NCBI GenBank assembly: GCA_964400255.1
Contig: CAYNTR010000001.1
Location: forward strand, 1-61,064
Direction of reading: 5' to 3'
Origin: an uncultured Halobacteria archaeon
Lineage (GTDB): Archaea > Halobacteriota > Syntropharchaeia > Alkanophagales > Methanospirareceae
Length of the DNA: 61,064 bases
A program made the translations under genes and the position numbers. Below, piece by piece: positions 28,836 through 42,200 of the stretch. Positions within the stretch are counted from its first letter, which is position 1; every line of letters starts with the position of its first letter. The notes under the pieces were generated by a model that had not been told where the DNA came from, searched no databases, and saw only the letters and a program-made list of their open reading frames with translations.

Positions 28836-29099
28836 CTAGTACGCGTGCTCACGATGGTCAATCCAGTTGAGATAAACCACCTTCTCGCTTTCGTTAGGTG
28901 TAAATATAAGTCGGTATCTCTTTGTTATTCGTGTTGATTTCTTACCGTGTAGTTCTCCCGAAAGCCAACCGCCGATGTGTAACGGATCTTCTTGTAACCG
29001 TTTAATTTTCTTATCGAGTTCTTCGAGGGCTTGCTTGTTCTTTTGGATGGATTTTAGAGAGGACAAAAACGTATTTGTTCGTTTTACTATCCAGGTCAT
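28836..29099 (-). CDS. relE: RelE/ParE-superfamily toxin (second copy, unrelated in sequence to the first)
   Basis: 87 aa. The LQEDP..G..L.G.L.G, RITKRYRLIF and VVYLNWIDHREHAY layout fits RelE/YoeB. Confidence 0.7.
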   Translation of the reverse strand: MTWIVKRTNTFLSSLKSIQKNKQALEELDKKIKRLQEDPLHIGGWLSGELHGKKSTRITKRYRLIFTPNESEKVVYLNWIDHREHAY

Positions 29100-29174
29100 G
29101 CCTTTAGTTAGTGATCTTGCAGAAGACTTAATAAACCTCTCAGGAATTCTTCCCCACTTTACACCTACGAATGC

Positions 29175-29390
29175 TCAAAGCTCTGCAAGCAAATCCTTGA
29201 CAGACGTAACTTCCTTAACCCTGCCAGCTTTGATATCCTGGTCACTTTTGCGAAGTGCTTCCATCGTTTTGGGATTGCTCAGAATTTCAACTGAATCCAC
29301 AAGTGCGTCGAGATCCTCTCGAGTAACCATCTTCTCTTCAATTCTCTTCAGTGCTTCGTAAACCTCTTGAATTGTTACCGATCCAGTCAT
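29175..29390 (-). CDS. Putative antitoxin
   Basis: 71-aa ORF upstream of the toxin. ALRKSDQDIKAGRVKEV resembles the C-terminal region of Phd/YefM-RelB-type antitoxins. Confidence 0.55.
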   Translation of the reverse strand: MTGSVTIQEVYEALKRIEEKMVTREDLDALVDSVEILSNPKTMEALRKSDQDIKAGRVKEVTSVKDLLAEL

Positions 29391-29462
29391 ACTTTTCCTT
29401 TAGTTTCAGGACTATATAACTATTTTGGTTTGTATTGCACATAACTTTTCGCAGGCAGAATC

Positions 29463-30374
29463 CTAAAGTTCTAAGCCCAATCGACTCGCGAGTATCAAAT
29501 AAAACCCAGCCAGGCCTTTCCAGCGTCCCCACTTTTCGGCGATTTTGCGTGCCTCGACGCTGGAGATTTTGAGATCGTTACAGTAGTAATGCGCGATGTG
29601 GCGTCGTAGGCCGAGGTCATCCGCTGGGAATGCCTCTAATTTATGCATGCCGCGGAGCATCGTGAGCTCTGCCGTCCATACTCCGATGCCGCGCACTTTA
29701 CAGAGTTCCTTGATAATCGCCTCCGCGTCCTCATAGGTTTTGAAATGCTCTAAATCCAGCTCGCCTTTAACAATAGCAGTAGCAATACCGTGGATATACT
29801 CTGCCTTTCGCATACTCAAGCCGCAGTTACGGAGTTGCTCAACCGTTCCGTGAGCGATGTTTTGGGGTGTCGGAAATGCGTAATATACTTTCTCATCCAG
29901 TTCCAGCGTAGCACCAAACGTTTTGATCACGTTTCGTTCTAACACATGTGCCACATTGAGCGAGATCTGCTGTTCTATTATTGAATCGACCAACGCTTCG
30001 AAGACCATCGGTGTTGTCGGACTTTTTAACCCCTTTAATTGCCGAGTCAAGGTTGACATAATCGTATCGTTTTTGACCTCCTCGTAGAACGCAGTAAGGT
30101 CACAGGTTAAATTGAAAAGGGAAGAGACTATTTCTTCAGCGCGTTTTTGGTCGTTCGTAGAAAGTTCAGCGTTTGATTTTAATTCAACTTCTAATTTCGG
30201 GTTGTCTATCCTTCCTGATGAGGTGATCGTAACAAGTACTAATTTCTCGTTCAGGCGCAGAACCTGCCAGTACTTGCCATGTTCATAAGTACGAATGTGG
30301 GGATCACCACCAGCAAAAATCCTAGCACTTAAATGGAAATCAAACGGTGAAACAGGTGTTATCGTGAGGTTCAT
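29463..30374 (-). CDS. alkA: DNA-3-methyladenine glycosylase II (AlkA, HhH-GPD)
   Basis: AlkA-like N-terminal domain and an HhH-GPD core (VRGIGVWTAELTMLRGM...FPADDLGLRR). Confidence 0.8.
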   Translation of the reverse strand: MNLTITPVSPFDFHLSARIFAGGDPHIRTYEHGKYWQVLRLNEKLVLVTITSSGRIDNPKLEVELKSNAELSTNDQKRAEEIVSSLFNLTCDLTAFYEEVKNDTIMSTLTRQLKGLKSPTTPMVFEALVDSIIEQQISLNVAHVLERNVIKTFGATLELDEKVYYAFPTPQNIAHGTVEQLRNCGLSMRKAEYIHGIATAIVKGELDLEHFKTYEDAEAIIKELCKVRGIGVWTAELTMLRGMHKLEAFPADDLGLRRHIAHYYCNDLKISSVEARKIAEKWGRWKGLAGFYLILASRLGLEL

Positions 30375-30408
30375 AGCTCAGTACTAGCCTTAAAGTGGTA
30401 TAAATGTT

Positions 30409-31068
30409 TTATAACAACCCTTTCTCTTTCATGCTCAAATATCCCTTCTTCGAGACAATAAGATGATCCAATACCTTGATACCTAAAACCGATCCTGCCT
30501 CGACGAGTTGTTTTGTCATGAGAATATCTTGCTTGCTCGGTTCCAAAATGCCAGAAGGATGGTTATGCACGAGAATAACAGAAGCCGCTCGATCTGTAAT
30601 AGGATCAGCGAAAACCTCTCGTGGATGAACAAGGTTATGATCAAGTAATCCAACCGTTATTATTCTGTTGCCAACAATCTCGCCCGCTCCGTTTAACGAA
30701 ATACAAACAAAATATTCTTGCTTTTTATCCGCTATATTGGATACAAGCGGTATAACATCTGTCGGCGAAGTGATCTTTACAGCTTCTTTTATGAGATATC
30801 GACGTGCAAGTTCAAAGCTTGCCATTATTTGACACGCTTTTGCCGATCCTACGCCTTCGATTTTCTGGAGATTTTCATAAGTGAGTTGTGCGAGGTCGTT
30901 CTTCAGGGTTTTAGAGATTTCTCTGGCTATTTGAAAAGCATCCATTCCCGGAACTCCCTTTCCGATGATAATTGCGATTAATTCAATGTCGGAAAGCGCT
31001 TCAGGGCCTTTGCTAATGAGTTTTTCCCGTGGGCGGTCAAAATCAGGCAGTTCTTTGATTCGTTTCAT
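30409..31068 (-). CDS. radC: RadC-like JAB/MPN domain protein
   Basis: ELPDFDRPREKL...SDIELIAIIIGKG, an HhH (IEGVGSAKA), and the JAMM motif HNHPSG....PS..D. The ATG at 31068 lies 1 nt after the hsdR stop. Confidence 0.85.
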   Translation of the reverse strand: MKRIKELPDFDRPREKLISKGPEALSDIELIAIIIGKGVPGMDAFQIAREISKTLKNDLAQLTYENLQKIEGVGSAKACQIMASFELARRYLIKEAVKITSPTDVIPLVSNIADKKQEYFVCISLNGAGEIVGNRIITVGLLDHNLVHPREVFADPITDRAASVILVHNHPSGILEPSKQDILMTKQLVEAGSVLGIKVLDHLIVSKKGYLSMKEKGLL

Positions 31069-31069
31069 C

Positions 31070-34000
31070 TTATCCAACTCCAACCGGAAATGAGAGCTCA
31101 GCAGATACAGGAACATAATCCTGATAGAGGTTGATTGCTTGCTCCATTATGGTGCTCACCATTGGGTCGTAGATCTCAGGCGTGAACCCTTCCCGTTTGA
31201 GCAAGCGCTTGACACTCGCGCGTATTTTGCTTTTGACATTCTCATGGTCCGTCCAATCAATGCTCAAGTTGCTTTTGATCGTGACCACTAATTTCTTAGC
31301 TAACTCCAGAAGCTGTTCATCTGATTTGATATGTTCTCTTCCTTGGGCGACGGCATCGTAGAATGCGATTTCTTCATCAGTCAGACCGAGTTGTTCACCA
31401 CGATGTTCCACGGTTCGAAGATCTCGTGCCATGTCAACCAACCGTTCAATCACTTCGGCAGATTCTATTGTGCGGTTCTGATACCTCTTGATCGTATTTT
31501 CCAGCATCTCCTTGAACGAGCGGTAAGTTACGACGTTCTTTTTCATTTTCCCGGTTATCTCATCATTGATTAGTTTCTTAAGCACTTCGACCTGCAAATT
31601 CTTGTGCTCGATCTTCTGGATGTCATTCAGGAACTCGTCACTGAGAATGGAAATTTCTGGGCGGTCCCTTTCTCGGAATCCGAATATATCCACGACTTCA
31701 TCTGAGGAGACGCCTTCGGAGACGAGTTGTTTGATTGCTGTCTCGACATCTTCGGATGCGTCCCTTACAGAAGGTGTGTATTTTCGTATACTTCTGCGGA
31801 CGCTCTGAAAGAAGAGCACATCGTCACGAATATCAGTAGCCTCCTTATGGGGGCTGACCAGCGCAAAAGCCTTTGACAAAGCGGTGCACTGCCTGAGGAA
31901 GCTGTCTTTTGTTTCATCGTCCGTGGTTACCGCATTGTGAGCTCGTTGAATGAGATAGGTTAACTCTACGGGCGCTAACCGCCGCCAGTTTGCATATTCG
32001 ATGCCGTGGAAGAACGAACACACGATATCGTATTTCTCTTGTAAGACGGTAATTGCGTCCTCAATGGCGATCATGGAATCGTGCCGTACTTCATCGCTGT
32101 AGACTCTGAGTGACTTCTTGAGGTCGTCGGCGATACCAATGTAGTCCACGATGAGACCACCTGGTTTATCTTTGAAGACGCGGTTCACTCTCGCAATCGC
32201 TTGCATGAGGTTGTGATCACGCATTGGCTTATCGACATACATGGTGTGAAGGCATGGCGCATCGAAGCCGGTCAGCCACATGTCACGAACAATGACAAAC
32301 TTCAGCGGATCGTTCGGGTCTTTGAACCGTGCTTTGACATCTTCCTGTTCCTGTTTGGTCATCCTCGGCAACCCGAAATCCTCTGGCCGGGTTATGACCA
32401 CAGCAGTCTCGGGCGCCTCGGGGATTTGTCCGAGTAATTCGTACATTTTAACGGCGATGCGTCGACTCATGCAGACGATCATTGCTTTACCTTTGAGTTC
32501 TCGTTGATTGAAGTGCTCAACGATATCCTGAGCAATTTGTTTCACCCGAGTTTCAGTGCCGACGACAGCTTCAAGACGTGCCCATTTGGATTTCAGCTTC
32601 TCTTTGATGATCTCTTCTTCTCGTTCGGTAATCTCCTCGAATTCTTCGTCGATGAATTCATTGGTGAGGCGGACTTTAGCCAGCCGGCCTTCGTAATAGA
32701 TCGGAACCGTGTTTCCGTCTTCCCTTGATTGCCGCATCATATAAACGCTGATATAGTCCCCGAACGTCACCCGCGTTGAACGGTCTTCAAGTTCTATGGG
32801 CGTGCCGGTAAATCCGATGAATGACGCGTTAGGGAGCGCATCCCGAACGTTCCCGGCGAGTAACCGATATTGGGAGCGGTGCGCCTCGTCCGCAATGACG
32901 ATGATGTTCTTTCGCTCAGAGAGCAAGGGATATTTCTCGCCATTCTTGGTCTGGAACTTCTGGATCGTCGTGAAGATGATGCCGCCTGCAGGGATATTGA
33001 GCTTCTGCTTGAGATCCTCGATGTCTTCAGCCTGTTTCGGGTAGGGTATCAAATCCATCGCCTTAGCGAAGTTATCTTTGTATATTTGGTTATCTAAATC
33101 GTTTCGATCGGTCAGAACGAGAATAGTAGGATTCTCAAGCGCGGGGTGTTTAATGATTTTGGCGGTGAAGAAGACCATGGAGAGCGATTTCCCGCTGCCC
33201 TGCGTGTGCCAGATAACCCCGATCTTGCGGTCGCCTTCTTCTGCCGTTGCTCGCAATGTCTCCTGCATCGCACGATTGACGCCGTGATACTGATGGTACA
33301 TGGCCATCTTCTTAACGACGGTGTCGCGATGCGTTTCAAAGAGAATGAAGTTCTGGATGATGTCCAGCAAGCGCGATTTCTCGAAGATGCCTTTGATCAT
33401 GACCTCTAATTCGGGCCTACTGTCGGGCGGTTCCATACCATTCTCAATCACACGCCAGGGGGTGTACCAATCCCAGTCAGCTGTAAGTGTCCCGTGCCGT
33501 GCCTCCTTAACGTCGCTGGCGACGAGAATTTCATTGTAGTGATAGAGCTGCGGGATTTCGCTCTTGTAGACTTTGATGTTCTTGGTAAACGCTTCCTTTG
33601 CCCGCTCATAGCCTACCGGATTCTTCACTTCAATATCCACCAGTGGCAGGCCATTGACAAAAATCAAGACATCAGGCCGGCGATTATGCTCTCCATCAAC
33701 AACGGTGAACTGGTTCACCACGAAGAAATCGTTATTCTCTGGATTCTCGAAGTCAAAGACCCGTGCGAGATCGCCTCTTCGCTCTCCCTCCGGTGTGGTT
33801 ATTTCCACCTTAACGCCGTTGACCGCCATCACATGAAAGCGGTGATTATTGACGTACAGATTCGGCGAATCGAGTGTGAGGAGCTGGTGCATGGCATCCT
33901 CAACGGCATCGTCAGGCAAGTGCGGGTTCAGCCTCTCCAGAGCGGCTCGCAGCCTCCGTTTGAGCACAACGTCACTGTACGAATCCCGTTCCGGGAAGAG

Positions 34001-34111
34001 CCCGCCGGGACTGATGTCCGGTCCGAAGGCTACCTCGTAATCCAGCTCTTGGAACCATGCGAGTGCCGGTTGCTCCGCAAGAACATCCTCAGAAAGCGTT
34101 GCTGAGGTCAT
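31070..34111 (-). CDS. hsdR: Type I restriction enzyme R subunit
   Basis: N-terminal PD-(D/E)xK (PDVLIFVNGLPLVDIEVK), an SF2 helicase (QGSGKS, ADEAHRSQ) and a C-terminal DUF3387-like region. Confidence 0.95.
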   Translation of the reverse strand: MTSATLSEDVLAEQPALAWFQELDYEVAFGPDISPGGLFPERDSYSDVVLKRRLRAALERLNPHLPDDAVEDAMHQLLTLDSPNLYVNNHRFHVMAVNGVKVEITTPEGERRGDLARVFDFENPENNDFFVVNQFTVVDGEHNRRPDVLIFVNGLPLVDIEVKNPVGYERAKEAFTKNIKVYKSEIPQLYHYNEILVASDVKEARHGTLTADWDWYTPWRVIENGMEPPDSRPELEVMIKGIFEKSRLLDIIQNFILFETHRDTVVKKMAMYHQYHGVNRAMQETLRATAEEGDRKIGVIWHTQGSGKSLSMVFFTAKIIKHPALENPTILVLTDRNDLDNQIYKDNFAKAMDLIPYPKQAEDIEDLKQKLNIPAGGIIFTTIQKFQTKNGEKYPLLSERKNIIVIADEAHRSQYRLLAGNVRDALPNASFIGFTGTPIELEDRSTRVTFGDYISVYMMRQSREDGNTVPIYYEGRLAKVRLTNEFIDEEFEEITEREEEIIKEKLKSKWARLEAVVGTETRVKQIAQDIVEHFNQRELKGKAMIVCMSRRIAVKMYELLGQIPEAPETAVVITRPEDFGLPRMTKQEQEDVKARFKDPNDPLKFVIVRDMWLTGFDAPCLHTMYVDKPMRDHNLMQAIARVNRVFKDKPGGLIVDYIGIADDLKKSLRVYSDEVRHDSMIAIEDAITVLQEKYDIVCSFFHGIEYANWRRLAPVELTYLIQRAHNAVTTDDETKDSFLRQCTALSKAFALVSPHKEATDIRDDVLFFQSVRRSIRKYTPSVRDASEDVETAIKQLVSEGVSSDEVVDIFGFRERDRPEISILSDEFLNDIQKIEHKNLQVEVLKKLINDEITGKMKKNVVTYRSFKEMLENTIKRYQNRTIESAEVIERLVDMARDLRTVEHRGEQLGLTDEEIAFYDAVAQGREHIKSDEQLLELAKKLVVTIKSNLSIDWTDHENVKSKIRASVKRLLKREGFTPEIYDPMVSTIMEQAINLYQDYVPVSAELSFPVGVG

Positions 34112-35175
34112 GTTTTATTCTTTTCTCGATATAGCTTCCAGATTTCATCCAAGGACTTTTCTTTAAGGGTGTCTTTAATCGCTCTTATTGCTTCTCGTGA
34201 ATATTTGTAGTATTTGGATTTACCAATGGGAATCGCCTTGCAATAAGTTTCATTATCTTTCAGCTTCAAGTACCAAATTAAAGCATCTGTCTTTCTCTTT
34301 GACAATCCTACCGCTTCTGCCAGTTGATCTCTTCCCATCGTATAGTAACTCAGCTCTTTTACCTTTCTTATTCCCACGACCATCGCTCCTGGCGTTCCCT
34401 CAGGAACCACCTGTATTGGAATTCCGTCCTTCTTGGTAAAACGAAGATTGAGCGATAGCCCTGAGCCTTCAGTGGTCATGTTTAGAGAGGCAACCCCCGG
34501 GAAGATCGTTTGCCAATCGATTCCGCCCGCTATCTTCGTCAATTTTTTCCGCAGTTTTGCATCAGTTACCGGAACATGCTCCCCACTGATAGCGCTTTCC
34601 ATTATATCTAACGCTCGTAATCTAGCTAAGGCTAATGACTTTTTCCGGCTACCCGGCATGAGCATTGCCTTGATGTGCTCTATTTCATTCTCGAACAAAA
34701 CATCAATATCCTTGGGCGGAACGGTAGAAATGGGAAGAACTCGTTGTGGCATAAATTCTGAGAGATCTTTACCAAAAACGGTTTTTAAAATGTCTTTAAA
34801 GAGTGTCACGCCCCCTTGCATAAGCAGATAATGCTGATCCTCAGGGATATCAATGAAATAATGCTGTTCAGCATCTCTCATGCTGTTGATCATCTGAAGC
34901 GTCAACGCTTGCTCATCGGTTAAAAATCTCACGTTACCCGCACCAATAGCCAGTCGTACACATTTATCAAATCCAACCGTCTGTTTAGACTCTTTATCGT
35001 AAATTTTTGCCCTTCTCTGTAAAAGAGTGGCCTTGAGGAGCATCTCAAACGCATGGTCAAGTAATATCAAAGAAGCATGGATTCTCCCTCTATCAAAGGG
35101 TCGGTTAAAAAATTCAATGCTGAGCAGCAAAGAATCGGTGGCTTTGCTCAGCAGGATCTTAACTATTCTCTTCAT
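34108..35175 (-). CDS. DUF3644-like protein embedded between hsdS and hsdR
   Basis: SLLLSIEFFNRPFDRGRIHASLILLDHAFEMLLKA resembles the DUF3644 N-terminal signature, with a C-terminal HTH-like region. The ATG at 35175 gives the shortest overlap with hsdS; ATGs at 35199 and 35244 are also possible. Confidence 0.45.
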   Translation of the reverse strand: MKRIVKILLSKATDSLLLSIEFFNRPFDRGRIHASLILLDHAFEMLLKATLLQRRAKIYDKESKQTVGFDKCVRLAIGAGNVRFLTDEQALTLQMINSMRDAEQHYFIDIPEDQHYLLMQGGVTLFKDILKTVFGKDLSEFMPQRVLPISTVPPKDIDVLFENEIEHIKAMLMPGSRKKSLALARLRALDIMESAISGEHVPVTDAKLRKKLTKIAGGIDWQTIFPGVASLNMTTEGSGLSLNLRFTKKDGIPIQVVPEGTPGAMVVGIRKVKELSYYTMGRDQLAEAVGLSKRKTDALIWYLKLKDNETYCKAIPIGKSKYYKYSREAIRAIKDTLKEKSLDEIWKLYREKNKT

Positions 35176-36424
35176 TCTTTGCTCCCGTTTTATCACCATT
35201 ATTCCCTCGTATTTGACCCGAAAGAAGTTTCGGGAGGAGTGCATCTCTGAGATTCACTAATTGACGAGATTCTATATTGTTATTTATGAAAGTCTCTATC
35301 AAGGGATTCATTAGTTCATTCATTTTTTCAATGATTTCTTTTGGGGGTATTAATACATAGGTCTCAGATAAATGATGACGTTGAATATGACCCATTGTTG
35401 TAGCCTTTCCTTTGGCAATATGCCGAAATATAGGCAAATAAAATTTAATCCATTGATAATAGAACCATTTAGGGTAAGTTTGAGATGTAACTTTAAATAG
35501 ATGTTGATTTAGCGCACCTTTACCACCGCACCAGATACAAACTTCAAGGCTACCTGACCATGAAAAAAGAATATCGCCATCATCAACAATATATCGTTTA
35601 TCAATGTCTGGACTCGCTTTATCACTCGATTCTGTTATACCTTGCCGAAGTTCCCTTATCTTGATCCCAGGCAAATAGTTTTCATCTTTTGGTGGGTATT
35701 TCTGTAGGGCTAAACCGTTTAAGAAATTTGCTATCTCATCAATTGGTTTCGCCACCCACCCCTTCGGAATCTTCTTTCCCAGCTCCTCAGAATAGACCAT
35801 CTCGCCGCCGCTTGACTTATACGGCTGCCCCTGCCCGTTCGGGAACTCGAAGTCCACGAACCAGTGTTTGAAGATCGCCTGCGCCATCGCCTCCAGCGTT
35901 CTGTTCATCGCATGGTTGAGCTCGATCTTGTCGTCTAAGGCAGATAAAATAGAGGCGATCTTTTGCTGCTCGGGGAGGGGTGGAAGAACAATCTTTAAAT
36001 CGTCAAACGTCTTTTTTGTAATCGTATCAAATACCGTCCCATAAGAGAGGGAGTTTATCTTTTCCATCAGAGTTTTAAGTTTATAGAACAGGAACAGGGG
36101 ATATACACCTTCTTTTGCTATTAGACCATAACACGTTTGATTAAATGCCATTGAATAGGGTAATAGACAAGTCTTTCCAACGGTCCCTCGAGATGTAATT
36201 ACAATTGTATTTCGTGGCAATAATTTTGTGGCACTGTTTTCCAACCCTTCTTGAGTTATTGTTTTTTCAGTTTCATAAATGTATCTGCCATTACAATTTG
36301 CTATGTCCTTAGCACTAGCCCACTTTATATTTCCACCCCAATATTCTGGTTTATTTGTTTTTGGCGTTCCGCCTATCACAATATCAGCAATCTCAGAAAT
36401 AGCGAGCTCTTGTTCAGAACCCAT
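35159..36424 (-). CDS. hsdS: Type I R-M specificity subunit
   Basis: Two target-recognition domains, each beginning GGTPKT-like or ending FP.., separated by conserved coiled regions (LPPLPEQQKIASILSALDDKIELN). Confidence 0.9.
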   Translation of the reverse strand: MGSEQELAISEIADIVIGGTPKTNKPEYWGGNIKWASAKDIANCNGRYIYETEKTITQEGLENSATKLLPRNTIVITSRGTVGKTCLLPYSMAFNQTCYGLIAKEGVYPLFLFYKLKTLMEKINSLSYGTVFDTITKKTFDDLKIVLPPLPEQQKIASILSALDDKIELNHAMNRTLEAMAQAIFKHWFVDFEFPNGQGQPYKSSGGEMVYSEELGKKIPKGWVAKPIDEIANFLNGLALQKYPPKDENYLPGIKIRELRQGITESSDKASPDIDKRYIVDDGDILFSWSGSLEVCIWCGGKGALNQHLFKVTSQTYPKWFYYQWIKFYLPIFRHIAKGKATTMGHIQRHHLSETYVLIPPKEIIEKMNELMNPLIETFINNNIESRQLVNLRDALLPKLLSGQIRGNNGDKTGAKNEENS

Positions 36425-36440
36425 ACTCCAGCTCCTCCAT
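36415..36440. repeat. Junction repeat D (remnant ..MEELEYGF* fused to the hsdS start MGSE)
   Basis: CAGAACCCATACTCCAGCTCCTCCAT matches the hsdM/AlbA_2 junction at 22 of 23 nt. Confidence 0.85.
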
Positions 36441-36498
36441 TACTATCATCTCAACTAAAACCATCTTTAAGCCTTTTATGCCTTCAAAGAGAGAGTTC

Positions 36499-36912
36499 CT
36501 AATCAAACTGCACACCTCCTTTCATAATCATAGAATCATCAACATAACGGAAAGATTGCGGCGGCACGAAATCTGGTTTTAATTCTTCAGGATCAACAAA
36601 ATGCTTAAAAATATGAAGAGATTGAATTTCAATTGCAAAACCTTCCTTATATCCGTTAAAATAGCTAAAGAAATCATCCTCGTTAATCCCTGACACATCT
36701 TTATATTTCTTCCACAGTACTTCAGGGGCTTCTTTTACGACTTCACCAATTTTAAAATAGCCGACAACCTTTTTTTGAGGAGAAGCGGAATAGATAAATA
36801 CTTTAGCTATGTCCCGGTGCTTCTTAAATATAGTCTTCCTGAACTCATATCTCTTATTGCCATTCATTATCTCTTTTACGTAGATTGGCTTAATCGAAAG
36901 TAAAATGTCCAT
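36499..36912 (-). CDS. ASCH (PUA-like) domain protein
   Basis: ILLSIKPIYVKEIMNGNKRYEFRK......VFIYSASPQKKVVGYFKIGEV..APEVLW is the canonical ASCH pattern. Its start overlaps the upstream ORF by 23 nt. Confidence 0.75.
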   Translation of the reverse strand: MDILLSIKPIYVKEIMNGNKRYEFRKTIFKKHRDIAKVFIYSASPQKKVVGYFKIGEVVKEAPEVLWKKYKDVSGINEDDFFSYFNGYKEGFAIEIQSLHIFKHFVDPEELKPDFVPPQSFRYVDDSMIMKGGVQFD

Positions 36913-38371
36913 CTATACCACCTCTTTCTTTTATTTTCAAATATTTATCATGGTCTATTTCAGTGATGGACTGGGGAGCGCCTCTTAATATATCGTTTTC
37001 TATCAAATCATTTAGTATCAATGGGTTTTCTATATAGAAATGCCAACTGAAAAATATTAGTAACGTGGGCTTTTTTGCCATTTCTTTAATTTCTTCATAA
37101 GTATACACGCTTCTTTTTCCCACATATCGCATTATTTCGTTTTTTGTTAAATTACCTCTGTAAACCCTTTCAACAACTCCCAGAGCAGTTATACTGCTCA
37201 TATCACCGGAGCGATAAAACAAAACAACATCTCCACTATTGATTTTTATGCTTCTTGAATGAGAAAGATATGCTTTTTTTATCGTGTTTCCTTCAACAAT
37301 GAATTGCCCGAGATATTCAGGTAAGGTTGATTGCCTTTTATAATCCGTGAATAATCTATCATGGTATTCTGGACGAATCGGAATTACGAATTTATTTACC
37401 TTTCTTCCATCATATAACGACGGGTAGTATTTCTTGCAGATTTCTTGGTATGCTATCTCGGTTCCTTCATCCGGTTTTAATTTCTTTAGATAGACTTCTT
37501 CTCCTCTTTCATTCACAGCTGCTCGGTAGAACCCGAATTCAGTTATCAATTCGATCAAGAGGTCATTTTCTTTTGTGAAGTGTGTTAGATACATTTCGTC
37601 GATATTGTTTCGTACACATAGATTTACAGTCAGTTTGATAAAAAGCTCGCCAATTTTATAACCTGTATGAGAAACTTTCATGGTGGATATCTTTAATCTT
37701 CTTTTTTTAGGTAACGGTGGAATGGAATCAATAGCTTCCTCTTCAATCTTATAGATAAGTAAAGCACCGATCTTGTGATTGCCGTAGTATACCCAGCATT
37801 TTCTCCCTTCCCTGGAAATTTTATTAAACCATTGTTCAAATTCACCATACTCCTTTTTCAATGAGTCGAAAAATGGATCTTTGATATCCAAGTTATGCAC
37901 TGGAACTTTCTGGATTGCCGGAGGTGGTGTCACATCGGTATTCAAATATCTCTTTAAAAAAACTAAGCCATCCTCGATGTTAAACACGCGATCATCGACT
38001 CCAATTTTCTTAGATTTCGTGTATATGCCCCTATCTTCTGTTACTAGAAAATCGATTGCGTTTTTATAAAGGCTAAAAAGCAATGCATTATCCACACGTT
38101 CATTATGGCTCTGTGGCACCCCAACTATTGACACAAAATCAGGGTCAGGGTCTATTGGGGACTCCAAATATCTATAGGTTTTTATTTTAGAGAGAATAAC
38201 TCCTTTTCTCTTTTCATCTTTATCTCGATAAATCTCGCTAACAGAAAGAGGGTGGATCAAAATCTCCGCTTTCAGCTCACTTAAAAGTCTCAATAGTTCC
38301 TGCAAATTGTCAGGGAGAACATTGTTATCCTCTCTGTATATGAAAATATTTGTATCTATCAAGACTCTCAT
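36890..38371 (-). CDS. PIN / GNAT-like / PUA-like three-module fusion protein
   Basis: The PIN module has MRVLIDTNIFIY and LVTEDRG. The central region has a GNAT-like loop (MKVSHTGYKIGELFIKL, EFGFY). The C-terminal beta-rich module has KFVIPIRPEYHDRLF and SGDVVLFYRSGDMSSITALGVVERVY. The PIN call is solid. The other two are inferences from motif shape. Confidence 0.55.
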   Translation of the reverse strand: MRVLIDTNIFIYREDNNVLPDNLQELLRLLSELKAEILIHPLSVSEIYRDKDEKRKGVILSKIKTYRYLESPIDPDPDFVSIVGVPQSHNERVDNALLFSLYKNAIDFLVTEDRGIYTKSKKIGVDDRVFNIEDGLVFLKRYLNTDVTPPPAIQKVPVHNLDIKDPFFDSLKKEYGEFEQWFNKISREGRKCWVYYGNHKIGALLIYKIEEEAIDSIPPLPKKRRLKISTMKVSHTGYKIGELFIKLTVNLCVRNNIDEMYLTHFTKENDLLIELITEFGFYRAAVNERGEEVYLKKLKPDEGTEIAYQEICKKYYPSLYDGRKVNKFVIPIRPEYHDRLFTDYKRQSTLPEYLGQFIVEGNTIKKAYLSHSRSIKINSGDVVLFYRSGDMSSITALGVVERVYRGNLTKNEIMRYVGKRSVYTYEEIKEMAKKPTLLIFFSWHFYIENPLILNDLIENDILRGAPQSITEIDHDKYLKIKERGGIDGHFTFD

Positions 38372-39486
38372 GATACTCCCTCCATCATCTTCTTTCCCTT
38401 CTCCTTTTCCAAATCGCCTTCCACCTCTTCTAAGAGCCCTGCCAATTGCCGTGGGTCCGGCAGTTGACCGCTGAGTTCTTTCGGCAGTTTAAGCGTGAGC
38501 TTGTATTCGGATACTCCAATGGGTTTGCTCATATCCCTGAGTGAGTATTCTGCGATAAGCCCCTTTTTTGTCTTGCATAATATGATCCCGACAGAAGGCT
38601 GGTCATCTGGGTGCCGCACCATGTCGTCCAGTGCCGAGAGGTAGAAGTTCATCTTCCCGGCGTATTCCGGCATGAACTCGCTCATCTTCAGGTCGACGGC
38701 CACCAGACACCGCAACCGATGGTGGTAGAAAAGCAGATCAATATAAAAATCGCGCTCTGCCACTTCCAGGTGGTACTGGTTGCCCATGAAGGCGAATCCC
38801 ACGCCCAGCTCGAGCAGGAACTCTGTGAGCTTTTCCCGCAACGCCTTCTCGAGATCGCGCTCCTTTGCATCCCTCGCAATGGTGATGAAATCGAAGATGT
38901 ACGGGTCTTTAATCGCCTGTTCCACCAGTTCAGATTGTGGCGATGGGAGCGTCTGTGGGAAATTGGTAGTTTTGGCGGCAACAGCCTGCCTTCCATAAAG
39001 GTCGCTCTCTATCTGGTGAACCAGGACATTGCGGCTCCAGCCGTTCATCTTGGTCTGCTCTGCATACCATAAACGCTCCTTAGAATTTTTAACTTTCTCC
39101 AGCAAAACCACATTATGCCCCCATGGAATTTCTGCGACAGCTTGTGGCAGATTTACAACGTCAATATCTCGCACAAGTTGTGCGAGTTTCTCAACATCTT
39201 CAGAATATGCCAAATAAAACGCGCGCATCCGCCAGATATTGCTTGGAGAGAACCCCTTCACATCTGGAAACTCCCGCCGTAGATCCCGAGCCAACTGCTC
39301 CACAACACCTTTACCCCAGCTCGTTTCCTCCTGTTTCTCAACTATACTTTTACCAATATCCCAGTAAAGAGCAATTAACTCCCTGTTAACAGACAAAACC
39401 GCTTTGGTCTGGGCAATTCTAATACGCTCTTTCAGTTCGTCGAGGAATTCTGGATACCCGGATCGTTCTATCAGCTCAGAATCCAT
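38368..39486 (-). CDS. DUF1016 / YhcG-family PD-(D/E)xK nuclease
   Basis: The family signature is AQTKAVLSVNRELIALYWDIGKSI...WGKGVVEQLARDLRREFPDVKGFSPSNIWRMRAFYLAY. The nuclease core is DLLFYHHRLRCLVAVDLK. Confidence 0.85.
   Translation of the reverse strand: MDSELIERSGYPEFLDELKERIRIAQTKAVLSVNRELIALYWDIGKSIVEKQEETSWGKGVVEQLARDLRREFPDVKGFSPSNIWRMRAFYLAYSEDVEKLAQLVRDIDVVNLPQAVAEIPWGHNVVLLEKVKNSKERLWYAEQTKMNGWSRNVLVHQIESDLYGRQAVAAKTTNFPQTLPSPQSELVEQAIKDPYIFDFITIARDAKERDLEKALREKLTEFLLELGVGFAFMGNQYHLEVAERDFYIDLLFYHHRLRCLVAVDLKMSEFMPEYAGKMNFYLSALDDMVRHPDDQPSVGIILCKTKKGLIAEYSLRDMSKPIGVSEYKLTLKLPKELSGQLPDPRQLAGLLEEVEGDLEKEKGKKMMEGVS
38379..38403. repeat. Junction repeat C (..EKGKKMMEG at the DUF1016 3' end)
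   Basis: The 25-mer CCTCCATCATCTTCTTTCCCTTCTC is identical to 39496-39520. Confidence 0.9.
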
Positions 39487-40630
39487 ACCCCAGCTCCTCC
39501 ATCATCTTCTTTCCCTTCTCAGTAATTACATATCTCTGCTTGCTGCTTCGGGGCTTATCCGGGATGGTCATGGCCAACCATCCGGCCTCCAGAGCAGGCA
39601 GGATATATGCTTTCCGAAGATGCCATCGATCCACAAGCGCCAGTATCTTCTGAATCTCCTCCCGGGATTTCGGCTCTGCACAGGCAGCCAGCATCGTTCT
39701 AACTTGTGGGGTAACTTGTGGGGTAACTTGTGGCCTTCTATCGAATATAACGGTGAAGAACGAGGTGAACTCATACCGGGGCTCGGGTAGGCCGCTGGAG
39801 ACCATCATCTCTTTCATCCGGGTTATGCCCGACCCTATCTTTTCCACCGCTCCGATCCGGTGGAAGAAATCGGCGATCATCGCGTTCCTGCGCACGCTCT
39901 TCTTACCGAGGTCTTCCGGTTTCATTCCCGGTGGTAACCCGCCGGGATCGGCTATCTCCACCCGGTCCCGGTACACCTCTACAGAAATGTTCGCGGACTC
40001 GAAATGGTAGTCACGATGCATGACGGAATTGAGCACCGCCTCACGGAGGACCTCTTCCGGAATCTCCAGAATCTCCTTCCTTTTCAAGCCGGTAATCTCA
40101 TATTTCAATGGCAGATGCATCTTCAGGAAGAGCATTGCCTGCTTCACATTTTCCATGAGATTGCCTTTCAGCTCTTTTCTATCCAGAATATCAACCTTGT
40201 CCGTACCCGCGAGTAACACACAATCGACGGTAGCATGCCTCAGAAATCGTATCGGCTCCCGGGCAAAGAAGAGAACGCCAGTATTCGTGAATAGCAACCT
40301 TTCGTCGTGCTGTTTTGCAACACCGAGATTTACGAGAACATCCTCGGTACTCATGCCGGTGGATGATACCCCTGCACTATCCAAAATCTTCAAAGGTACC
40401 GGAGGATCACAGCCCCGAGCAATACTTTCCAGCTTTGAAATCTGGCTATTAATGTTTGAAACGCCCACAACCTTCCTATCATTATCCATCCCCACGAGGA
40501 TATGACCTCCCCCGGAATTGGCGAATGCCACCATCTCACGATTGATCGAACTGGAAACTGATCGTTTATACTCTATAAACTGACCCTCCGGCTGAGAGAG
40601 CATCATGTCCAAGCTCTTCTCAGAACCCAT
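39476..40630 (-). CDS. AlbA_2 (Schlafen-like) plus HATPase_c_4 plus wHTH protein
   Basis: The AlbA_2 domain is shown by [10 protein letters not shown]....[29 protein letters not shown]. The HATPase_c_4 domain is shown by [41 protein letters not shown]. The C-terminus looks like a wHTH. Confidence 0.75.
39477..39520. repeat. Junction repeat B (..[13 protein letters not shown] fused to MDSE)
   Basis: The first 23 nt match junction A at 22 of 23. The last 25 nt are identical to junction C. Confidence 0.9.
39699..39734. repeat. In-frame 12-bp x 3 tandem repeat
   Basis: (G/C)TAACTTGTGGG repeated three times on the plus strand encodes [11 protein letters not shown] in the AlbA_2 protein linker. 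Confidence 0.9.
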
Positions 40631-42200
40631 ACCCCAGCTCCTCTAAATTCGCTTTTATCTCGTCCCTGAGACCCTCTGCTCGCTCAAACTGCGCGGCAAG
40701 TTCTGCAACAAGTCGTTGCATTTTCTCCTCAAACGGCTCATCGTCGTCCTCGACCTCTTCCGTGCCAACGTACCGACCCGGGGTGAGCACGTACCCGTTT
40801 TTTCTTATCTCATCGAGAGTAGCGACCTTACAGAAACCCGGAGCGTTTTCGTACTCCCGCATTCCTGCTTCACCGCGATGCGCGTGGTAGGTATCCGCAA
40901 TTTGCTTGATCTGCTCATCTGTCAACTCGTTGTGCGTCCGGTCCACTTTCCGGAAGAGCTTGCGTGCATCGATGAATAACGTTTCACCTCTACGGTTGCG
41001 CTGCTCATTTTGCGCTTTGTTCTTGGTGACGAACCATAAACAGGCCGGAATGCCCGTGGTATAAAACAACTGCATGGGCAATGCGATCACGCAATCCACG
41101 AGATCCTCCTCAATGATCTTCTTCCGAATCTCGCCTTCGATACCGCCCACGGACATCGAGCCGTTCGCCATCACAAATCCAGCAATCCCGTTGGGCGCTA
41201 AATGATAGATGAAATGCTGGATCCACAGGTAATTAGCGCTTGAATTTGGTGGCGTGCCGTATTTGAGCCGGACGTCACCCTGCACCCGGTCAACGCCCCA
41301 CTCGCTCACGTTGAACGGCGGATTCGCGAGAATACAGTCGGCACGCAAATCCTTGAATTTGTCGTCCCAGTAGCTGTTCCCGAGCTGGATGTTGCCCTCA
41401 ATACTCCGAATGGCGAGGTTCATCTTACAGATCCGCCAGGTCGTATCGATACTTTCCTGCCCGAAGATCGAGATATCGGCCCGCTTGCCGCCGTGTGCTT
41501 GGATGAACTTGATGCTCTGGACGAACATGCCGCCGGAGCCACACGCAGGGTCGAATATGCGGCCGCGATAGGGCTCCATCATTTCAACCAGGAGTTTGAC
41601 GATGCAGCGCGGCGTGTAAAACTCGCCACCTCCTTTGCCTTCCTGTTGCGCAAACCGCCCGATGAAATATTCGTAGACACGGCCGAGGATGTCTTTCGCG
41701 ATCGCATCGACGGTTCCAAACCCGATCGTGCTGAAGAGGTTGATGATCTCACCTAACGTAAGATAATCGATATTCGACCGTGCATAGATCTTTGGGAGGA
41801 CACCGCGGAACTGCTTCGGGTTCTCCTTTTCGATCGCTACCATAGCGTTGTCCACCAGCTTGCCAAGATTTAGATTCGTCGCATTCGCCATTAAAGACGA
41901 CCACCGGGCCTCTGGCGGCACCCAGAAGATGTTCTCGCTGAGATATTCGTCTTTCTCTTCAAGTGCATCGGAGATGCCGTAGTATTCGAGGTTTCCGGGA
42001 TCTTTCACCGCTCGGTTCAGATACTGCTGCCGCTCGACAAAGGCATCGGAGATGTATTTCAAGAAAATAAGACCCAGTACGATGTGTTTATATTCGGCGG
42101 ACTCGACGCTCCCGCGCAGTTTGTCCGCAGCCTTCCAGAGCGATTCGGCGAAATTGAGGTCGCCATTCTCGTTCGATTGTTGCGGTTTTTTGTTGGGCAT
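40620..42200 (-). CDS. hsdM: Type I R-M N6-adenine DNA methyltransferase subunit
   Basis: HsdM_N region, AdoMet motif ([10 protein letters not shown]) and catalytic NPPF. Confidence 0.95.
40621..40643. repeat. Junction repeat A (hsdM ..EELGYGF* fused to MGSE of the next gene)
   Basis: CAGAACCCATACCCCAGCTCCTC is the reference copy of the junction motif. Confidence 0.9.

Follow-up and report, generated by a model that had tools for sequence, protein, structure and literature searches.

We analysed a 61,064-nucleotide stretch of DNA (positions 1 to 61,064 of contig CAYNTR010000001.1, assembly GCA_964400255.1; hereafter the window) from an uncultured Halobacteria archaeon, in which two overlapping genes encode a protein of 493 amino acids with PIN, GNAT-like and PUA-like domains and a stand-alone ASCH protein of 137 amino acids. 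The pair is almost certainly a member of the '(PIN)-GNAT-EVE + ASCH' two-gene module, catalogued in PADLOC-DB as PDC-M11: the larger protein matches the PDC-M11A profile (PDLC04422) with an expectation value (E) of 5.4e-161, residues 1-492 being aligned to profile positions 1-500 of 501, and the smaller one matches PDC-M11B (PDLC04424) at E 1e-48 over residues 1-131. The feature is already known, and the pair is an ordinary member of a catalogued candidate system; it represents, in clean archaeal form, a candidate immune module of very wide distribution (Archaea, numerous bacterial phyla, plasmids, proviruses, coliphages), and the locus is not a discovery and changes nothing in the published picture. 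New here are the constancy of the ASCH pairing (77 of 77 loci) as against linkage to hsd genes of type I restriction-modification (R-M) systems (18 of 77), the invariance of the PIN acidic residues alongside a remodelled GNAT loop, the homology of the partner to ZmASCH, and the link to an annotated phage pair named GevT/GevA. The pair and its parts are laid out as follows:

36890..38371, minus strand: open reading frame (ORF) of the M11A fusion (PDC-M11A), 493 amino acids, ATG start, with PIN, GNAT-like and PUA-like (EVE-ASCH) domains
36499..36912, minus strand: ORF of the ASCH partner (PDC-M11B), 137 amino acids, ATG start; a stand-alone ASCH protein of the ZmASCH family
36890..36912, minus strand: overlap of the fusion and ASCH genes, 23 nucleotides, read in the sequence
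37937..38371, minus strand: PIN nuclease domain of the 493-amino-acid protein, about residues 1-145
37472..37918, minus strand: GNAT-like domain of the same protein, with a degenerate motif A, about residues 152-300
36893..37414, minus strand: C-terminal PUA-like (EVE/ASCH-like) beta-barrel of the same protein, about residues 320-493

Both ORFs and their overlap lie exactly where they had been placed by a first-pass annotation, made by a model from the sequence alone, and its reading of a PIN domain, a GNAT-like central region, a PUA-like C-terminal module and a separate ASCH gene, nested together between hsdM and hsdS of a type I R-M operon, is borne out by the evidence below (for the operon, by Pfam). 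The same annotation had called the architecture undescribed, which it is not. In Matelska et al. (2017; PMC5499597) these systems appear as PIN_15/PIN_17; Bell, Wolf and Koonin (2020; PMC7641849) described them as '(PIN)-GNAT-EVE' operons, nearly all of them with a gene for an ASCH protein and often one for an AAA_17 ATPase; and both papers credit the architecture to Iyer et al. (2013). The PIN-containing form is often linked to type I R-M in bacteria and archaea, and ASCH is fused to HsdS in Methanohalophilus (PMC7641849) and to a domain of helix-turn-helix (HTH) type in alpha-proteobacteria (PMC7641849, PMC5499597). PDC-M11 itself corresponds to cassette CAS_00069, a predicted phage defence candidate of PADLOC-DB v2 with 293 RefSeq instances, picked because it lies embedded in BREX, DISARM and type I R-M systems ('guilt-by-embedding'; Payne et al. 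2024, bioRxiv 10.1101/2024.01.29.577857). One PDC-M11 locus is carried by E. coli strain ECRC101. The window pair has the same three-domain order, the same downstream overlapping ASCH gene and the same embedding in type I R-M; it differs in having neither the optional AAA_17 P-loop gene nor the HTH fusion of many bacterial loci, and nothing essential differs. Literature searches on PDC-M11, GNAT-EVE, GevT and GevA found no experimental characterisation.

Homologues of about 500 amino acids form more than 1465 clusters, the nearest being 60% identical to the window protein, and this number of full-length homologues, together with the full-length PADLOC profile matches, puts the observation far beyond chance. 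Since the window protein alone gave only sub-threshold PIN and EVE matches in Pfam (PIN_12 at E 0.023, PIN_3 at E 0.15, EVE at E 0.04), 30 family members were scanned one by one: PIN_3 was matched in 27 (best E 8.7e-7), EVE in 22, and Acetyltransf_1 in 14. No NCBIfam family was matched by the window protein alone. An AlphaFold2 model built from the family alignment (mean predicted local distance difference test score, pLDDT, 86.5) shows an alternating beta/alpha pattern in the PIN region. When the model was compared with the PDB by Foldseek, the central domain matched the GNAT proteins Naa50, NatC, PaiA and TacT at E 1e-5 to 2e-4 (template modelling, TM, scores of 0.5-0.65), and the C-terminal domain had ZmASCH (5GUQ) as its top match (E 7e-8, TM 0.74-0.81). 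The full-length family profile, searched against PDB sequences, aligned residues 229-288, the stretch that the first-pass annotation had quoted as GNAT-like, to beta4-alpha3-beta5 of Naa50 at a marginal E of 0.049; the same search also returned spurious T-cell receptor matches. A search of BFVD by fold found only generic GNAT and ASCH viral proteins. No PIN structure was found among the top 50 Foldseek hits or in the profile search of PDB sequences, and so the PIN assignment rests on Pfam, the secondary-structure pattern and the conserved residues.

Conservation was counted in an alignment of 75 archaeal and diverse bacterial sequences, the most distant of them about 32% identical. Within the PIN domain, D6 (75 of 75), T7 and H40 never vary, 74 sequences have an acidic residue at position 46, and D94 and D113 are each kept in 74; the acidic set is under strong selection. 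In the C-terminal domain P331, I332, Y368, F385, Y386 and F441 are invariant, and P334 and R420 nearly so. The GNAT-like loop is conserved in a form of its own: neither G237 nor G241 varies and 74 of the 75 sequences have E242, while in motif A (Q/R-x-x-G-x-G/A), here aligned as [R/T/V]236-G237-x-K/R239-x-G241, the central glycine is replaced by K/R239 in 74 sequences and the first position is arginine in just 30. The family does not carry the canonical motif A that binds the pyrophosphate of acetyl-CoA, and the alignment indicates that the motif has been remodelled in a conserved fashion; Matelska et al. (PMC5499597) saw the same change and judged acetyltransferase activity to be probably lost. 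The fold is shared with the GNAT toxins TacT, AtaT and KacT (TacT 5FVJ, TacT2 and AtaT2 are among the Foldseek hits at E 2e-4), but M11A differs from them in its degenerate motif A, in having no ribbon-helix-helix (RHH) antitoxin partner, and in the PIN and PUA-like fusions that flank the domain.

The 137-amino-acid partner matches Pfam ASCH at E 0.0016 and carries the motif GxKxxExR, of which K20, E23 and R25 are invariant in the family and G18 is found in at least 90% of sequences. A profile of the partner family aligned to the PDB sequence of ZmASCH over residues 3-130 at E 2.1e-24, the model of the partner superimposes on the ZmASCH structure with TM 0.73-0.75 (Foldseek), and ZmASCH itself matches the PDC-M11B profile at E 3e-29. 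In vitro, ZmASCH (ZMO0922; PDB 5GUQ/5GUS) binds nucleic acids and shows a weak, Mg-dependent cleavage of single-stranded RNA only, cutting neither single-stranded nor double-stranded DNA, and Y47, K53 and S128 contribute to the activity (Kim et al. 2017, PMC5615036). These residues correspond to Y41, K47 and S120 of the partner, of which Y41 and S120 are invariant and K47 occurs in at least 90% of sequences. YqfB, by comparison, is a distant fold match (Foldseek E 3.5e-3, 10% identity, TMq 0.54) that ranks beneath ZmASCH, TTHA0113, AF2351, McrB-N and TRIP4; complexes of the TRIP4 ASCH domain with double-stranded DNA and a 5-hydroxymethylcytosine (5hmC)-specific endonuclease are among the lower hits. 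By sequence, the partner appears to belong to the ZmASCH branch rather than to the N4-acetylcytidine amidohydrolase branch of YqfB, and among prokaryotic ASCH proteins the ZmASCH branch is the only one with biochemical work behind it; the mention of ZmASCH in the first-pass annotation was apt, the partner being a bona fide sequence homologue. A profile-profile comparison of the partner with the C-terminal domain of the fusion was not significant (probability 0.2%, E 0.32), although IKP/IRP and PPQS/APQS were aligned in register, and we do not claim the two PUA-like modules as paralogues detectable by sequence.

ZmASCH is an orphan in Zymomonas mobilis, unlike the window partner. We considered whether it has a GNAT-EVE gene as its partner there and rejected this, the upstream gene being without similarity to M11A; an ASCH protein of this family can therefore stand alone. 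That upstream gene encodes a conserved protein of 375 amino acids on the same strand, 48 nucleotides before ZmASCH (L081:4825-5952, L numbers denoting the loci of our survey), for which no Pfam or PADLOC match was found, and it may be an alternative candidate partner of ZmASCH-type ASCH proteins.

The structures of the two proteins bear on an acyl 'write/erase' system, an idea credited to Iyer et al. (2013) and raised also in the first-pass annotation as an acetylation/deacetylation switch, in which the GNAT-like domain would acetylate a DNA or RNA base, the ASCH protein would take the mark off as YqfB does, and a PUA-like module would read it. Such a system would fit the GNAT fold found by both Foldseek and the family Pfam scan, the strict conservation of the loop in its own form, the ASCH protein of locus L016, which is fused to a GNAT domain passing the Acetyltransf_1 threshold (E 3e-8), and the fact that some ASCH proteins (YqfB, EOLA1) are N4-acetylcytidine amidohydrolases (PDB 9KYF/9KYH; 10.64898/2026.08.01.741249). 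It is weakened by the substitutions in motif A, by the judgement of Matelska et al. that the activity is probably lost, and by a partner far closer to ZmASCH than to YqfB, and it leaves the invariant PIN nuclease without a role; we consider it improbable. A variant, in which the reshaped loop remains capable of group transfer to a base of a nucleic acid or draws on an unusual donor, with the ASCH protein erasing or reading the mark and the PIN domain destroying unmarked or wrongly marked RNA or DNA, seems to us very improbable, and if true it would constitute a self/non-self system based on acyl marks working beside methylation-based R-M.

How far the two genes belong together, and how far they belong with hsd genes, was addressed by a scan of one genome per species, which gave 80 loci spread over many phyla of Archaea and Bacteria, 77 of them assessable for an ASCH neighbour. 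An ASCH gene adjoins the fusion in all 77: in 73 it was called as an ORF directly downstream in the same orientation, in L008 it was found by tblastn only (with the same 23-nucleotide overlap), in L010 and L030 it is convergent, and in L048 it lies just upstream, between GNAT-EVE and PIN-GNAT-EVE genes. The overlap measures 23 nucleotides in 27 loci and 11 in 10, and the fusion and ASCH genes are predicted to be translationally coupled. The module lends itself to study in isolation, since the ASCH partner is constant and R-M genes come and go. Some partners carry additional domains: ASCH-HsdS fusions occur in L023 and L025, ASCH-AAA_17 fusions in L053, L057, L059 and L073, and a separate AAA_17 gene in eight loci. 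In a Methanolobus metagenome-assembled genome (L016:11505-13202) the partner is a 565-amino-acid ASCH-GNAT-EVE fusion directly after a normal PIN-GNAT-EVE gene, so that the locus holds two GNAT-EVE units, one of them with the canonical GNAT domain noted above. Desulfosporosinus (L048:8186-11449) has PIN-less GNAT-EVE, ASCH and PIN-GNAT-EVE genes in tandem; this locus bears on the idea of Bell et al. (PMC7641849) that the PIN-less and PIN-containing forms counteract each other.

Linkage to R-M is far less constant. Genes resembling hsd were found within 10 kb in only 18 of the 77 loci, and in a Pfam census of upstream neighbours R-M families are the most frequent (N6_Mtase 9, Methylase_S 7, ResIII 5) yet occur in a minority of loci; the other flanking families are heterogeneous and include GmrSD (GmrSD_N 2), DUF499 (2), AAA_21 and many housekeeping genes. 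The M11 pair is enriched near R-M genes without depending on them, and of the two associations for which the first-pass annotation had proposed a neighbourhood survey, that with ASCH stands throughout and that with hsd loci only in part. These counts bear on the proposal, made in that annotation, of a latent RNase like PrrC, which the Hsd complex would hold inactive until a phage anti-restriction factor released it. As in EcoprrI, where the gene for PrrC is nested among the hsd genes of a type I R-M operon, the window pair lies inside such an operon; the pair recurs between hsdM and hsdS or hsdR in L005, L017 and L032 (in each as hsdM - fusion - ASCH - hsdS - hsdR), the ASCH-HsdS fusions suggest that the R-M complex is physically contacted, and in the window the pair and hsdS share a low GC content (0.35-0.40), as if acquired together. 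PrrC, however, is almost exclusively embedded in type I R-M (10.1101/2024.01.29.577857), whereas M11 is linked to hsd in only about a quarter of loci and occurs also in coliphages and an archaeal provirus, on plasmids and beside housekeeping genes; there is no homology between the two, and the window proteins have no PrrC match in PADLOC-DB. As a property of the family the guarded model does not hold, and we regard it as having little chance of being correct.

The pair is found on several kinds of mobile element. The fusion is present on 33 plasmid records (beneath these matches are features labelled 'GNAT | helix-turn-helix') and falls in PHROG families annotated without function, the window protein matching phrog_10674 at E 3e-108. 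In the Methanothermobacter provirus psiM100 (L085; NC_002628.3, 8233-10078), ORFD is a full-length PIN-GNAT-EVE protein with 40% identity that lies mostly inside 'inserted fragment IFa', and ORF5 is the ASCH partner with 49% identity, the two genes overlapping by 23 nucleotides. ORF5 is annotated as present also in phage psiM2, which is without the insert. In Escherichia phage PhiR47_2 (PV340567.1) a homologous pair without the PIN domain is annotated as 'GevT toxin' and 'GevA antitoxin': GevT aligns to residues 160-490 of the fusion (33% identity, E 6e-40) and GevA shares 41% identity with the ASCH partner (E 2e-32). Gene order and the 23-nucleotide overlap are those of the window pair; the phage genes differ in the missing PIN domain and in their setting, which is not an hsd operon but the position directly downstream of cI, in the orientation of cI.

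The pair might instead have no part in defence, being either a mobile and selfish cassette that works by addiction, or a pair for RNA metabolism or regulation that merely hitchhikes in variable regions. Many loci do lie among housekeeping genes, ASCH homologues are named 'predicted transcriptional regulator' in some databases, and no protection phenotype has been published (PMC7641849). This reading is nonetheless at odds with the prevalence of R-M among the upstream families, with the selection of the pair through guilt-by-embedding, and with the place of the coliphage pair directly after cI, a position typical of exclusion genes expressed by lysogens, and we give it a low probability.

We favour, tentatively and as a possibility rather than a probability, an autonomous and horizontally mobile module of toxin-antitoxin-like (TA-like) or abortive-infection type with a PIN RNase as its effector, and to this extent the general idea of the first-pass annotation, that of a TA-like or defence module, holds. 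Under this hypothesis the 493-amino-acid protein would be the effector, its VapC/FCF1-type PIN domain a metal-dependent RNase that the C-terminal PUA-like barrel docks on modified or structured RNA, for which tRNA or rRNA would be obvious candidates. The GNAT-like domain, with its reshaped yet strictly conserved phosphate-binding loop, would most likely be a regulatory module binding a ligand or nucleic acid and not an acetyl-CoA transferase of the canonical kind. The small ASCH protein, its ratio to the effector fixed by translational coupling, would bind single-stranded RNA (or the same RNA), the effector, or both, and so hold the effector in check, until the balance was upset by infection or by the loss of the locus. 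Nesting in the hsd operon would then reflect co-inheritance and co-expression with R-M, with no obligatory functional dependence.

Several lines of evidence lead us to this reading. An ASCH gene always accompanies the fusion but can also occur by itself, which is the asymmetry expected of a toxin and its neutraliser; the HTH-ASCH fusions resemble autoregulating antitoxins; and the phage pair is annotated as toxin and antitoxin, if only by its depositor. The effector role is suggested by the retention of the PIN acidic residues across the identity range sampled, and the link to RNA by the homology of the partner to ZmASCH, with equivalents of all three contributing residues conserved. Autonomy and mobility are argued for by the small share of loci near hsd genes, the heterogeneous flanks, the plasmids, psiM100, the PHROG families, and the GC contrast in the window. 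The M11 pair resembles VapBC systems in its PIN domain, which is VapC/FCF1-like and keeps the acidic residues, in the overlap of the two genes of its operon, and in a mobile, patchy distribution. It differs in having a three-domain effector of 493 amino acids and, as the downstream gene, a PUA-like barrel instead of an RHH, AbrB or HTH antitoxin.

Other observations weigh against the TA-like hypothesis. An order of effector first and small partner second is atypical for VapBC, as is a partner without a recognisable DNA-binding fold (a Pfam scan detected no DNA-binding domain in the window ASCH protein, and HTH-ASCH fusions are confined to other lineages); VapBC antitoxins are small, are encoded upstream and bear an RHH, AbrB, HTH or PhD domain. 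The RNase activity of ZmASCH was described as weak, in vitro only (PMC5615036), and is not tied to any cellular role. For PIN-containing members no experimental toxicity, neutralisation or phage protection has been reported, Bell et al. (PMC7641849) state that none of these modules has been characterised, and a literature search found no paper behind the GevT/GevA labels, which are a depositor's annotation. The strict conservation of G237, K/R239, G241 and E242 implies a specific job for the loop that the proposed mechanism leaves vague. In addition, the ASCH-HsdS and HTH-ASCH fusions and the Foldseek hits to TRIP4 ASCH bound to double-stranded DNA would fit a DNA-directed role equally well.

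Such a role is the substance of a further explanation, modification-dependent (type IV-like) DNA restriction, in which the two PUA-like modules would read modified bases and the PIN domain or a recruited nuclease would cut, the target being invading modified DNA that escapes the methylation-based type I system. Modification-dependent restriction enzymes in which a nuclease is joined to a reader of the PUA superfamily (EVE, ASCH, SRA, YTH) are established (PMC7641849, PMC7897488), and besides the fusions just named (with HsdS in L023, L025 and Methanohalophilus), the frequency of R-M families upstream, with GmrSD_N and DUF499 in two cases each, and the 5hmC-specific endonuclease among the lower Foldseek hits would agree with it. 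Other findings count against it. Characterised members of the VapC/FCF1-like PIN groups are RNases. The PIN domain of the fusion falls in these groups (PIN_3, PIN_12; PIN_15/17 of Matelska et al., PMC5499597) and is not a DNase-type HNH, PD-(D/E)XK, PLD or GIY-YIG domain; moreover, the nearest characterised relative of the partner cut single-stranded RNA and no DNA, and a PIN-less homologue annotated as toxic to its own host is unexpected for an enzyme that needs foreign modified DNA. We therefore hold type IV-like restriction to be unlikely. Experiments on the module are sharpened by the constant ASCH partner, its place in the ZmASCH branch, and an invariant PIN site combined with a remodelled GNAT cofactor loop.

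In the window the M11 pair is part of a minus-strand operon (31070-42200) of eight tightly packed genes that make up an intact type I R-M system with embedded genes. Besides the pair, the operon contains:

40620..42200, minus strand: hsdM, type I R-M methyltransferase (N6_Mtase, E 9e-112; HsdM_N)
39476..40630, minus strand: AlbA_2/HATPase_c_4/Fic-like_C gene (Pfam)
38368..39486, minus strand: gene for a DUF1016/YhcG protein of the PD-(D/E)XK type (Pfam; PADLOC PDC-S02)
35159..36424, minus strand: hsdS, specificity subunit (Methylase_S, E 2.4e-42, in two stretches)
34108..35244, minus strand: DUF3644 gene (Pfam; PADLOC PDC-S19)
31070..34111, minus strand: hsdR, restriction subunit (HSDR_N, SWI2_SNF2, T1RH-like_C)

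From hsdM onward the genes overlap by 11, 11, 4 and 23 nucleotides, after which a gap of 74 nucleotides separates ASCH from hsdS; the hsdS/DUF3644 and DUF3644/hsdR junctions overlap again. The fusion had been placed 4 nucleotides after the DUF1016 gene, and what is found instead is that its start overlaps the DUF1016 stop by 4 nucleotides (ATGA). The ATG of the ASCH gene is preceded, 7 nucleotides upstream, by a Shine-Dalgarno-like GAGGTGG. The GC content is 0.35 for the M11 pair and 0.40 for hsdS, as against 0.50-0.53 for hsdM, DUF1016 and hsdR, and GC at third codon positions is 0.34 in 36425-38371 as against 0.58-0.67 in the flanks, with a sharp step in GC at about 38370. The contrast points to horizontal acquisition of the M11 pair, and suggests that M11A, M11B and hsdS were gained as one block.

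With four embedded cassettes in one type I R-M operon (the AlbA_2/HATPase_c_4/Fic-like_C gene, DUF1016 as PDC-S02, the PDC-M11 pair, and DUF3644 as PDC-S19), 31070-42200 is an unusually dense case of defence genes inside a defence system. Genes of the AlbA_2/HATPase_c_4 type adjoin hsdM or the M11 pair in unrelated lineages (L053, L059, L023, L045, L047 and L050, as well as 39476-40630 of the window), and appear to be another common passenger of M11 loci. The DUF3644 ORF as called overlaps hsdS by 86 nucleotides; its real start is probably an internal Met at about 35175, since the PADLOC alignments begin only at residue 24. Directly downstream of hsdR, the minus strand of 28836-31116 encodes a RadC-like JAB protein (30409-31116), an HhH-GPD DNA glycosylase (29463-30374) and a ParE/RelE-like toxin (28836-29099), and this region may extend the defence island; an ORF of 71 amino acids (29175-29390) directly upstream of the toxin gene could be its antitoxin.

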